A DNA stretch of 64,000 nt from Escherichia coli (GTDB lineage Bacteria > Pseudomonadota > Gammaproteobacteria > Enterobacterales > Enterobacteriaceae), in assembly GCF_009931435.1 (NCBI RefSeq), contig NZ_CP043414.1; one strand, written 5' to 3'. Positions 18,001 through 24,000 of the stretch are shown one piece after another. How positions within the stretch are numbered: position 1 is the stretch's first letter; each line of letters starts with the position of its first letter. The position numbers were made by a program.

Positions 18001-21000
18001 CACCAGCATCTCAAAACCGGATTTGATCTTACCGTCTACCCAGCGGTCGAAGTGCTTAATGCACCAGCCGCCCAGCGGACCTGCAATCATAGAACCGAGG
18101 AACATCGGCATGTCTGCGCCGACGATAACACCCATGGTGGTGATGGCACCGACTACGCCGCCACGTTCGCCGCCTACCAGCTTACCACCGGTATAACCGA
18201 TCAGCAGCGGCAGGAGATAAGTGATCATCGGCCCGACCAGCTTCGCCAGCGTCTCGTTCGGTAACCACCCTGTTGGAATAAATAATGCGGTGATAATACC
18301 CCACGCGATAAACGCGCCGATATTTGGCATCACCATGTTGCTGAGGAAACGACCAAAGCTTTGCACTTTGATCTTAATATCGGATGACATAAAAACACCC
18401 CTTCTTATGTTTGCTGTCGCGCAGGCTGGAAGCCCGAGGTTTTTTGTTAATGTGGCGGCAGAGGTAGCCGGACCTTGTTGATAGTGCGAAATCTGGCACT
18501 GAATCGATCAACTGTCCAGTCGACGGCTTTTTGTGTGATATGAATCACATAAATATAGGGGGTAGAGAGGTAATTGACGTGATGTGCATCACAAAATACT
18601 TGTGTAAAAAAGCAACAAGACGGCGATTTTCGCTAAAAATGGCATTTAAATGTGAGTAATGTCACATTTTTGTTTTGTTAGTTTGTTGAATCTTTGTGAT
18701 CTGAATCACAAGATATTTTCTTACGGCGTTCACCTGATGTGATCTGCAGCATGTTATGCCTTCGTCATAAAATCGTTATGTAACTAAGCAACTCATCACC
18801 TCTAAAAATTATTCTTTGGTGTTATGGCGAGAATCGCGAACCCGAATTATTGTCAAAATATCAGCCTGACTCCCTTCTGGCTGCCAGCCAAAAAACAACA
18901 CCGATAAACGTGAATCCGAGGCAGATATGTTTCTAAACTATTTCGCGTTGGGAGTGCTGATCTTCGTCTTTCTGGTGATTTTTTATGGAATCATCGCGAT
19001 ACATGACATCCCTTATCTGATTGCCAAAAAGCGCAATCACCCCCATGCCGACGCTATTCATACGGCGGGCTGGGTGAGCCTGTTTACTCTGCATGTTATC
19101 TGGCCGTTCCTGTGGATCTGGGCGACGCTCTATCAACCGGAGCGTGGCTGGGGTATGCAGTCACATGTTGCGTCGCAGGAGAAAGCGACTGACCCGGAAA
19201 TCGCCGCACTTTCTGACCGAATTTCCCGGCTGGAGCATCAACTCGCCGCCGAGAAAAAGACTGACTATTCCACGTTCCCGGAGATCTAAATATGGATCTG
19301 TTGATTGTTTTAACTTACGTGGCGCTGGCGTGGGCGGTCTTTAAAATCTTCCGCATTCCGGTAAATCAGTGGACGCTGGCGACGGCGGCGCTGGGAGGCG
19401 TGTTTCTGGTGAGTGGTTTGATTTTGTTGATGAACTACAACCACCCTTACACTTTTACCGCACAGAAAGCGGTGATTGCTATTCCCATCACGCCACAGGT
19501 GACGGGGATCGTGACTGAAGTCACTGACAAGAATAATCAGCTTATTCAGAAGGGCGAGGTGCTTTTTAAGCTCGCCCCGGTACGTTATCAGGCGCGAGTC
19601 GACAGACTTCAGGCTGACCTGATGACGGCGACGCATAATATAAAGACACTGCGCGCGCAGCTCACTGAAGCGCAAGCCAATACCACCCAGGTTTCAGCGG
19701 AGCGTGACCGCTTGTTTAAAAATTATCAACGTTACCTGAAAGGCAGCCAGGCGGCGGTAAATCCGTTCTCGGAACGTGACATCGACGATGCGCGGCAAAA
19801 CTTCCTCGCGCAGGACGCGCTGGTGAAAGGCTCGGTGGCGGAGCAGGCGCAGATCCAGAGCCAGCTCGACAGTATGGTTAACGGTGAGCAGTCGCAGATT
19901 GTCAGCTTAAGGGCGCAGCTTACCGAAGCGAAATATAACCTTGAGCAGACCGTCATTCGCGCGCCGAGCAATGGCTACGTCACTCAGGTGCTGATCCGCC
20001 CAGGTACATACGCAGCTGCCTTGCCGTTGCGTCCGGTAATGGTTTTCATCCCTGAGCAAAAACGGCAAATTGTCGCCCAATTTCGGCAAAACTCGCTGTT
20101 ACGTCTGAAACCAGGTGATGATGCGGAAGTAGTGTTTAATGCGCTACCTGGGCAGGTATTCCACGGCAAACTGACTAGTATTTTACCTGTCGTGCCAGGC
20201 GGTTCGTATCAGGCGCAAGGGGTATTGCAATCATTAACGGTCGTGCCCGGCACGGACGGTGTGCTGGGAACCATTGAACTGGACCCTAACGATGATATCG
20301 ATGCCTTACCCGACGGCATCTACGCCCAGGTGGCAGTTTACTCCGACCATTTCAGCCATGTTTCGGTGATGCGGAAGGTGCTGCTAAGAATGACCAGTTG
20401 GATGCATTATCTTTATTTGGATCATTGAGGGGGGCGGGGGATATTATGGAACTTTGCTCCTTGTAAGGACTAATTATTTTTGCATATTATTTCATCGGCT
20501 GTGATGATTTTTCTTTAATATTCATTATGTTAATAAGTTCGGGATGAGTGTGAACTCATTGGATTTTTTATCCGTCTTGATCTGCCGCAGGATCAGACTA
20601 TACATCGTCGAGATCGCAATGATTATGAATTGTTCCTCTGCGACGATGCTAATCAAAAAAGTGCTGGAGTGCTTTTCCATCTATTGCGATGATGGTTTTA
20701 TTATCTGAAGAATGGCTGTCACATTTAAAAATATATAATTTATAGATCACAATGTAGGTTCATGGAATATATGTATACAACTATTTTTCTCTTCACTTTT
20801 AATTATCGTATTCATTATAACACTAAGTTAAAAAAACTCCTGGAGAGTGAGTTATTAATATATTTTTAAATATAATTAAGTTATTATTCATCGATGCATT
20901 TTATAGAATCATCAATGGCTACAATAGTACTATTAACTCTCCAATTTATATTTTTATTATCATTGCAAATATTAACTGAATCTATATCAATGATTTTTTT

Positions 21001-24000
21001 ATTTTTATCTTTTATTTTATTTACAGTTTCAATGCAATCAGCGACAAGTTGGTGTGGATTTAGATTCTTCAGATATGGTCTTATGATCTTTCCCTTGCTT
21101 AATAAATAGCATGTATAAGATTCGGAAAGTCCAGCATCTATTTTGTACATCATTATTCTAGATAAGGATGTGAGAAATGCCTTGTTATCATTAGCAGCCA
21201 TATATGCCAGTCCGAGTTCAGCCTCTGCGGCTTTACATGAAAAATAGCTAAGTGAACACGCTTTTCGTCCCTCTTGGGTACTGGCTGATATTAGTGCCCA
21301 TAATATTGCCTTGTCTGCCAAATCCAACTCTCTCTGAAATTGGTTTACAGTAACTGCATTCGCAGAAATAGAGAAAAAAAGCACAATTGTTAATAACCTT
21401 GCCATATTTCTAGTCCGTCACTGTTAATGTGTTATCTGGCTCTGAAAATATTAGCTCATTTAATTTTTGCATGTCATTAGATGAACCAGTTATACAACCC
21501 TCGGAACAGAATCGAGGTCCTAAAGATGGACCAAAAGCGTTTAAACAACTATGTATTAAAAATCCATCACGATTATACGTTTCTGTATTTGCTGACGGTA
21601 CTAAACGTATACCATTAGGTTTTCTATTAGTTGCTCCAGGACCATTAACATTCCAGGTCCATACCCCTTGAGGTATTGGGCCTCTATTTTGTAAGTGTGT
21701 ACAACCAGGATTATTTTTACATTGCATATTATTACCATTATTACCAGAGGCGACTGAAATAGTAAGCACACCATAAGAATTATCATCACCTGGTATATCT
21801 GAAACACACGAAAGCATACCTAAAGTTATGCTGTATAAACAGGTGGCTAATCCCAAGGGGATCGATTCCAGAAATCGGGTTCAAAGGATACTGATAAAAA
21901 TTCCACCTACCTTCCAGCCCAATCGGAGCCTGAGTGTTATACCGCCCCTGCTGCGGTTAATGTTACCGATAATAGTTATAGTACAGCCCTGATTCATCAT
22001 CATACTACTGCTGCGGCAGTCTGATGAATTATTGCTTTTACGGATTCTCCTTATTCTTCCTTCTATCCATTCGCTTTAGCTTTAGCTTTAGCTTTTTGAG
22101 CTCTTGAAGTTTGCTCTTTGCATCAATATTACCGTTATTTACAGCGAATTCCATCCAATAAATAGCTTTATTCAAATTATAATATTCTGATAATATTGGA
22201 TTTGTATCCGATAAAAAAACTCCATAATTAAACTGCGCTGTAACATTCCCCTGAGATGCTGATCTTTCTAAGTATCGCAATTGTTTGTAAATGTTATTTT
22301 TAGTAAAGCAGTAATATTGATATAGTCGAAATGATGCCTCTGAATCACCATGTTGTGATTTATACTTCAGTTTCATCAACTTTTCTTCACTTAAATCATA
22401 GGTCATTGCTGTAGACCCCATCATACTTTCGTTTTGTTTTATTTTCACATCAGCACCATGCAATTGAAAAATAAAAGAGAAATAAAAAAATAGTAACAAG
22501 CATGCTTTCATACATCTACAACCTATCTTATATCACTGGGTTTTTCTGGCGTACCTTGCATATTAGAAATGGGGTGCCCAGATGGCCCATATGTTATCCA
22601 ATTACCAAGGTCTTTTGTTGTTATAGCCATAAGATCCTTATTTGAATTAAGGTTCGTTGGTGCTGTTAGCACTGTATCCATTTTTAACTTACCATTAGTT
22701 CCTCGCCCCACCACGTCCATAGCGTGTCAGGTCCTATTACATTTGTATGTAACTCTTTAGCTAATTGGCTAGCAAATGAATTTTGTCCTTTACCTGTATT
22801 ACAAGAAAATAACCAAACTGTCATCCCATCTTTATAATTCCCATCAAATTTAATTAGATATGCTAGATCTTTAGCTGTCATGATACTGCGCGTTGCGGAT
22901 TCAATAGATGTGGGGGTACCATGCCCCCCGATTGTGAAAACGCCTGGGATATTAATCTCATCAGCTACAGAATGGATAAGATCACTTTCGGGGTATAAAT
23001 TTATATCAACCAAACCTTGCGGATCTACATTTATGACCGGATCCAACGGATACTGATAAAAATTCCATCCCCCCTTCAGCCCAATTGGATCCTGAGTGAT
23101 ATACCGCCCCTGCAGCGGGTCATAATAGCGGTGGCGGTTGTAATACAGGCCGGACTCCTCATCATACTGCTGCCCCGGCAGCCGGATGAGCTGCTGCAGT
23201 TGATGCGGGTTCTCTTCATTCAGCAGGTTGCCCCATTCATCATATTCTGCGTACCACGCTGTTGCCCCTTCCGTGCTGACAAGCGCCAGGGGCAGACCGC
23301 GATGGTCGCAGTGGTACAGGTGAATTTTTCGCGCCGGCGTGTACACCGGGTCCATCTGGTTTTGCATCTGCGTCACCGTCAGGCCGCACGATGCCAGCCA
23401 GCGGCGGCTTTCCTCACTCACCCGGTCAGCCAGGATTTCACTTTCCAGCCGGTCGAGCATCTGCACCGTGCCGGCGGGAATACCCCACTGTGCATAGGCA
23501 ACTCACGCTATGAACGCTTCAGCTTATCAATAGCGGAAGTTATAATTTCATTGTCATCAAACTTGTACAACATAGTATCTAAAACAGGAAGTAGCGTTTT
23601 ATCACCTAATTCACCCGCAGCTTCAATGATATCATCATAAACAGTATTTTTTTTTAACTCATCGCATAAAACAGATAAAACCCTTTTATCTTTTCTGTAG
23701 GAAAGTCCGATTATTGCTTCAATACGGACTTCCTCATTTTTATCCTGAAGCATCTCCACAAAACAATCCCTAATATCACTATTATCATATTTATTGATAT
23801 TTATTGCAAATGCGGCCCAGTTTCTGACATCTCCATTTGGATCTTTTAACAGATTAATCAATAGTGGAATTGTTGCTTTATCATTGATAACAGAAATAGC
23901 AAATGCTGTAGCACGTCTGACATTAGTCGATTTATCAAAAGCAGTAATTTGAGATTGTTCTACTATTTTAGGTGAATAAATTGGGTTTTTCTTGCATCGC

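Follow-up and report, generated by a model that had tools for sequence, protein, structure and literature searches.

The Tlde1a (Tae5)/Tldi1 pair of the Salmonella Typhimurium SPI-6 type VI secretion system (T6SS) is among the closest described relatives of the cassette discussed here (PDB ID 7UMA, PF10908), and Tlde1a is the only family member for which the literature holds an experimental characterisation. Related domains borne by Rhs proteins have been described as a class. Zhang et al. (2012) reported the Tox-LD-peptidase, an LD-peptidase tip on RHS repeats with Imm16/Imm57 immunity, the Imm57 gene adjoining, in beta- and gammaproteobacteria (PMC3482391). Sibinelli-Sousa et al. (2020), who cite the Imm57 link, found DUF2778 at the Rhs C-terminus in 11% of those genomes that possess one of the subfamilies (bioRxiv 10.1101/2020.02.18.954545). 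The cassette in question lies in a stretch of 64,000 nucleotides of Escherichia coli contig NZ_CP043414.1 (assembly GCF_009931435.1), termed the window below, and comprises an orphan Rhs tail of 148 residues and a partner protein of 173 residues. With high confidence, the tail is an Rhs-type toxin tip of the Tlde1 family accompanied by its Imm57 immunity gene. The whole is likely to be the degenerate orphan cassette at the distal end of the polymorphic-toxin array of E. coli rhsA, made of a Tlde1-type tip and an exported Imm57 protein, in which the tip has become disconnected.

The identity of this toxin/immunity pair is not new, as it is already annotated and published. The exact 148-residue protein is found in NCBI on 64 contigs as “tlde1 domain-containing protein”, and the exact 173-residue protein on at least 1000 contigs as “Imm57 family immunity protein”; the Prokaryotic Genome Annotation Pipeline (PGAP) gives the two genes the same names in strain 2020CK-00188. 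In kind, the pair belongs to the Tox-LD-peptidase/Imm57 class and matches the Rhs-DUF2778 fusions that the 2020 preprint describes for the Tae7/Tlde1c subfamily. Its synteny reproduces that of the former, although the copy in the window is a decayed orphan. The orthologous position in strain K-12, at the end of the rhsA element between yibG and yibH, is occupied by yibS-yibW-yibV-yibU. There, yibS, yibW and yibU are pseudogenes and yibV encodes the 111-residue “PF15596 family protein YibV”: the K-12 tail carries a 9-bp deletion and a frameshift, and its Imm57 is cut to 111 residues, whereas both open reading frames (ORFs) are whole in the window. A preliminary description of this DNA, made from the sequence, had overlooked the existing annotation and publication, as well as the loss of the delivery scaffold by frameshift and core decay and the presence of SEGC in place of SHGC in the catalytic motif. 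The coordinates, minus-strand orientation and quoted strings that it gave for the core remnant and the two ORFs were all confirmed, and the elements are as follows.

22038-22511, minus strand: yibG, a Sel1-repeat gene, whose stop codon lies immediately before the core remnant.

21857-22035, minus strand: decayed 3' remnant of an rhs core, about 180 nt, equivalent to K-12 yibS, aligned to intact core ends.

21857-21860, minus strand: run of four C with a +1 insertion at the DPLG-L junction, seen by comparison with an in-frame orphan.

21410-21856, minus strand: Rhs C-terminal toxin domain of the Tlde1/DUF2778 family, 148 codons with a mechanical TTG start, equivalent to K-12 yibW and intact here.

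21494-21553, minus strand: predicted catalytic stretch H102-S-C104...C117-S118-E119-G120-C121, placed by the columns of 33 homologues, the YkuD register and an alignment with LdtB.

20884-21405, minus strand: Imm57-family immunity gene, 173 residues, ATG start, full length, equivalent to K-12 yibV.

21355-21405, minus strand: Sec-type signal peptide of the Imm57 protein (MARLLTIVLFFSISANA), with predicted cleavage after ANA, read from the sequence and from homologues.

20994-21000, minus strand: A7 tract inside the Imm57 gene, variable in length between strains.

20531-20720, minus strand: ISAs1/H-repeat transposase remnant closing the array, equivalent to K-12 yibU, located through the 2020CK-00188 annotation (via offset) and the K-12 annotation.

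The preliminary description had likened the tail to YkuD and Tlde1-type enzymes. At the level of profiles, the second half of this proposal stands: the 148-residue ORF matches Pfam PF10908 (Tlde1_dom/DUF2778) with an independent E-value of 7.1e-8, residues 44-132 covering positions 10-105 of the 120 of the model, and homologues of the tail bear a precomputed match to the same family. The first half does not reach significance, the match to YkuD (PF03734) being sub-threshold (E 0.023). NCBIfam holds no model for the tail or for its partner. An AlphaFold2 model of the tail, built from the 33 homologues, has a predicted local distance difference test score (pLDDT) of 87.8 and a predicted template modelling score (pTM) of 0.84. 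When it was submitted to Foldseek against the PDB, the top 13 matches were all L,D-transpeptidase or L,D-carboxypeptidase structures; the tail thus has the L,D-transpeptidase fold on which membership in Tlde1/DUF2778 depends. The hydrophobic start of the tail was also considered as a lipoprotein signal or signal peptide, a reading discarded because the family consensus has a charged Arg there and the model forms a β-hairpin.

The strings GPIPQGVWT, FLIHSC and RFCSEGCI are all present in the tail, and the His/Cys pair that had been proposed as YkuD-like is borne out by conservation. Arg96, His102, Cys104, Cys117, Gly120 and Cys121 are invariant in the 33 relatives, and Ser103, Ser118 and Glu119 are more than 90% conserved. 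The register reads H102-x15-S118-E119-G120-C121, to be compared with the YkuD motif H-x(15-18)-[S/T]-H-G-C, with Glu taking the place of the second His; this Glu (SEGC) is found in 30 of the 33 relatives. In an hhalign comparison, FLIHSC...CSEGCI is laid on YAIHGT...VSHGCV of LdtB with an E-value of 0.18, not significant alone. The tail shares with Tlde1a the same Arg...His...S-x-G-Cys register, and both are small domains, disulfide-containing in Tlde1a and presumably so in the tail, without a leader of their own and paired with a Sec-exported immunity protein. The roles of Tlde1a residues R115, H121, S128, G130 and C131 have been reported, R115 and G130 being conserved in all Tlde1 subfamilies (PMC9638812). 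From their spacing, Arg96, six residues before the His, may correspond to R115 and Gly120 to G130; by analogy, His102 would act as base and Cys121 as nucleophile. The tail type differs from Tlde1a in being fused to an Rhs carrier instead of free-standing and in its immunity family, Imm57 instead of DUF2195. The Cys of the tail lies at His+19, a spacing that is YkuD-like and not Tlde1a-like (His+10), and two extra invariant cysteines flank the longer His-Cys loop. A disulfide between these two, Cys104 and Cys117, seems plausible from the sequences, and the Rhs-borne, Imm57-guarded clade has seven invariant cysteines overall.

The Rhs origin of the tail is documented by its relatives. A profile search of 1.84 billion representatives returned 443 proteins, including full-length Rhs proteins of 1308-1616 residues that end in the tail domain, and an Rhs core with DPxGL stands directly upstream of the domain in all retrieved relatives. 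The pairing with the downstream gene, which had been proposed from the sequence, is likewise recurrent: Imm57 is the next gene after full-length metagenomic Rhs genes at two loci (L006 and L007), stands directly 3' of an orphan tail in Ralstonia solanacearum (L003), and adjoins the toxin at L009. A third full-length metagenomic Rhs with this tail type (L008) is followed by a gene (7210-7701) whose 163-residue product has no match to Imm57 or to any other Pfam family; it may belong to an alternative family of immunity proteins acting on this toxin type.

The 173-residue ORF matches Imm57 (PF15596) over its full length, with an E-value of 2e-44 and model positions 2-100 of 100. That it is secreted, as the preliminary description proposed, is supported by its N-terminus, where MARLLTIVLFFSISANA, followed by VT, reads as a positively charged n-region ahead of a hydrophobic core and an A-x-A site. 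Every Imm57 homologue from Ralstonia and the metagenomes has a hydrophobic leader at its N-terminus, along with six conserved cysteines, which fits a periplasmic protein, and the protein of the window retains the leader and all six cysteines. Its AlphaFold2 model is all-helical (pLDDT 85, low over residues 1-20), in agreement with the “mostly alpha” description of Imm57 by Zhang et al. 2012 (PMC3482391). Foldseek against the PDB yields no significant neighbour for this model (best E 0.5).

In the window, the cassette has the outline of the orphan rhs-CT/immunity modules of Poole et al. 2011 (PMC3150448), in which a core fragment, a tip and an immunity gene lie 3' of the main rhs gene, in series. 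The tail and the Imm57 gene are AT-rich (GC 0.37 and 0.33) as compared to a GC-rich rhs core (0.57-0.60), the core remnant being at 0.458, and the immunity gene is directly 3' of the tip, as in an Rhs orphan module; the Imm57 ATG lies 4 nt downstream of the tail stop codon. As had been described, the tail follows a decayed core: the remnant is a recognisable Rhs core 3' end, interrupted by several stops and with DPxGL still read at its end, as in an orphan module, and it can be aligned with the core ends of two other orphans in which these are intact, the neighbouring one and an in-frame one at locus L012. The tip, however, is not in frame with the core that is retained. The junction of the in-frame orphan is GAC CCG TTG GGA, while that of the window is GAT CCC C TTG GGA, with one extra base. 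Because of the stops and this +1 insertion (21857-21860), no Rhs protein with the tip attached can be translated, and the toxin is probably silent in the window copy. This also sets it apart from Tlde1a, as an undeliverable orphan. An in-frame orphan of 267 residues (P0238) exists at the same locus in other E. coli (566 contigs), whereas the +1 junction lesion and the decayed remnant are common to K-12 and 2020CK-00188. Compared to the modules of Poole et al., the core of the window is very short, decayed and frameshifted at the junction, so that reactivation by a single crossover is unlikely: recombination between the remnant and the main rhs gene would transfer the frameshift as well. Two other products of the locus were observed. 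P0093 (E. coli, 148 residues) results from a deletion that fuses the Rhs core to the last ~40 residues of Imm57, and in P0262 (191 residues) the core (...YYDP) is fused directly to LGLATC of the tail; both are further recombination products between core repeats at the rhsA locus. In strain CH10508, an intact ISEc1 lies immediately upstream of the tail.

The mode of action of an intact version of this system can be proposed by analogy. In full-length relatives, the 148-residue domain is the C-terminal tip of the Rhs protein. As in characterised Rhs toxins, it would be enclosed in the Rhs shell, cut at DPxGL and injected into a neighbour cell, presumably by the T6SS. As in Tlde1a, Cys121, with His102 as the base, would then attack the bond between meso-diaminopimelate and D-alanine (mDAP3-D-Ala4) in the stem peptides of the periplasmic peptidoglycan. 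Stems would be trimmed or exchanged, leaving the wall starved of cross-link donors. In the periplasm, which it would reach through Sec, Imm57 would bind the toxin and inhibit it. In the window, the intact Imm57 gene is the only part that is plausibly still functional, in which case it would protect its host against neighbours armed with a toxin of the tail type.

Several observations weigh against this picture. Tlde1a shares only ~20% identity with the tail, and both the substrate and the neutralisation are extrapolated from it. Whether the query was the protein alone, the full alignment or the alignment of the tail, sequence searches of the PDB chains failed to retrieve Tlde1a, and the full alignment recovered only Rhs cores. 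The motif is SEGC, not SHGC, and the His-Cys spacing is 19 as compared to 10 in Tlde1a, so that the activity may differ. Of 51 positions with at least 90% conservation outside E. coli, the tail retains 49 and departs from the consensus at two, with R83I, common to all E. coli alleles examined, and S142N. In addition, residue 101 is Ile in the window allele and Ser or Thr in all other aligned sequences, including one other E. coli allele; judging from the alignment, I101, I83 and N142 may already compromise the enzyme. The 64-kb window contains no T6SS genes, which bears on the delivery route. A promoter and terminator scan found promoter-like sites not enriched relative to shuffles (8 versus 9.9 expected); without enrichment, the scan says nothing on Imm57 transcription. 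Finally, no experimental report was found for any Imm57 or for any Rhs-borne Tlde1-like domain.

Other explanations of the same data differ in what they make of the enzyme and of the two genes. The tail could have the L,D-transpeptidase fold with another reaction, that of a pure LD-carboxypeptidase (Csd6/Pgp2-like) or of an amidase of the Lpp-peptidoglycan link (DpaA-like). The replacement of the SHGC His by Glu would suit such a change, since the H129A substitution in Tlde1a weakens carboxypeptidase and cross-linking activities but not exchange (PMC9638812), and so would the different immunity family and a His-Cys loop 9 residues longer than that of Tlde1a. The invariance of the R115 and G130 equivalents among the tail relatives points the other way, and this alternative is unlikely. 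An hhalign comparison of the tail with DpaA gave no useful alignment. A wider form of the idea, in which the whole Rhs-borne, Imm57-guarded clade is biochemically distinct (for example, a pure LD-carboxypeptidase, endopeptidase or Lpp-link amidase lacking Tlde1a-like exchange) and the E. coli alleles, 7-9% divergent and shaped by purifying selection, mark a polymorphism of toxin/immunity specificity that the intact immunity gene keeps active, is more speculative still. That the tail is a fragment of a housekeeping YkuD-type L,D-transpeptidase gene, and not a toxin, would account for the weak YkuD match and the shared fold. It was rejected on context and deserves virtually no credence: the tail has neither signal peptide nor peptidoglycan-binding domain, is AT-rich in the manner of other Rhs tips, and follows an Rhs DPxGL in an rhs array, while its relatives are Rhs tips with Imm57 next to them.

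Concerning the state of the genes, the tail might be a live stand-alone effector with its own start (TTG at 21856 or the ATG at MLSC), a small T6SS cargo like the free-standing Tlde1. Its ORF is open, the conserved positions are largely kept, most DUF2778 proteins are single-domain (bioRxiv 10.1101/2020.02.18.954545), PGAP calls it a coding sequence, with a 135-residue ATG form in other strains, and the 4 nt separating it from the immunity gene point to a former operon. Nevertheless, every retrieved relative has an Rhs core upstream, the ATG form would lose the invariant Cys6, no convincing Shine-Dalgarno sequence is seen by eye before either start, the window has no T6SS genes, and the tail of 2020CK-00188 carries G64E at an invariant glycine; a live effector is therefore very improbable. 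A less remote alternative, although a doubtful one, is that both genes are neutral relics, the immunity gene being as dead as the toxin and not yet deleted. In most E. coli, Imm57 is indeed frameshifted or truncated (111 residues in K-12; marked “frameshifted” in E. coli C and O55:H7), one base of the A7 tract is missing in the 99.7%-identical 2020CK-00188, deletions in some strains run from the core to the last part of Imm57 (P0093), and promoter-like sites are not enriched. Against complete neutrality stand the intact 173-residue protein on at least 1000 contigs and the intact 173-residue clusters with hundreds of members, the ratio of nonsynonymous to synonymous divergence (dN/dS) between alleles (0.29-0.36), the conservation of the leader and six cysteines, and the detection of yibV transcripts in K-12 RNA-seq (PMC11228462). 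The reading preferred here, a disconnected toxin tip with a possibly functional immunity gene, gives a concrete predicted role to the poorly characterised K-12 yibV and to the pseudogenes around it: yibV would be a relic of immunity to a cell-wall toxin delivered by Rhs proteins.

The history of the cassette can be followed through its alleles. The tail is carried by 3685 of 5426 complete E. coli genomes. In 151 of these, it is at least 95% identical to the window allele, and some 3484 have the ~89%-identical, decayed K-12-type allele. Between the window and K-12, divergence is 1.1% in the core remnant, 8.7% in the tail and 6.7% in Imm57, with a step near 21800. The cassette of the window lineage is thus a separate allele, probably acquired through recombination, with the breakpoint a short way into the tail, and not by divergence in place. 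Codon analysis of tail and Imm57 against the K-12-type allele gives a synonymous divergence (dS) of 0.16-0.21 and a dN/dS of 0.27-0.29. Most of the divergence between alleles therefore arose while purifying selection was acting, presumably at a time when the cassettes still worked.

Strain 2020CK-00188 is colinear with the window over 20 kb (98.9% identity), and the 2 kb around the cassette are 99.7% identical. In this 2-kb stretch there are five base differences (21432, 21555, 21657, 21664 and 21666). All five are inside the tail and nonsynonymous (G64E, V65I, T67S, I101T, N142S), as compared to none in the flanking 1.5 kb; G64E, in 2020CK-00188, hits the invariant glycine. At these five sites, each strain matches the K-12-type allele at some positions and not at others, a mosaic pattern pointing to gene conversion in patches or to selection acting on the tip. 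Imm57 is whole in the window as opposed to frameshifted or truncated in 2020CK-00188, K-12, E. coli C and O55:H7. Its A7 tract, with the ORF intact, is A8 in K-12 and A6 in 2020CK-00188, and in L012 the gene is cut short within this A-rich stretch; the variation could reflect slippage-prone decay, assembly error or on/off switching. The window lineage has the best-preserved E. coli copy of the domain and offers a convenient template for the biochemistry of Rhs-borne Tlde1-like toxins and of Imm57. Beyond a tidier annotation, the importance of the cassette is small, and its residual interest lies in the SEGC motif, loop length and immunity family of the clade as compared to Tlde1a.

The array containing the cassette is the rhsA array of E. 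coli, placed between yibF/selA and yibH-yibI-mtlA according to the annotation of the colinear 2020CK-00188. The main rhs gene (26178-30371, minus strand, 1397 residues) is annotated as rhsC-type in that strain, with ybfB next to it. The RhsA-type tip (“polymorphic toxin type 34”, 24371-25579) with yibA (23508-24365) forms a displaced orphan on the minus strand. A yibJ-type orphan and yibG come after it, so that the array consists of three stacked orphans behind a swapped main tip. A second block of yibG, core remnant and decayed tail was observed at the rpmE-priA locus of E. coli WP3-W18-ESBL-08 (L010, 7352-8378), where it follows another full-length rhs gene, one that has a Sel1 protein for its own immunity. 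The remnant and the tail therefore travel with yibG as a unit.

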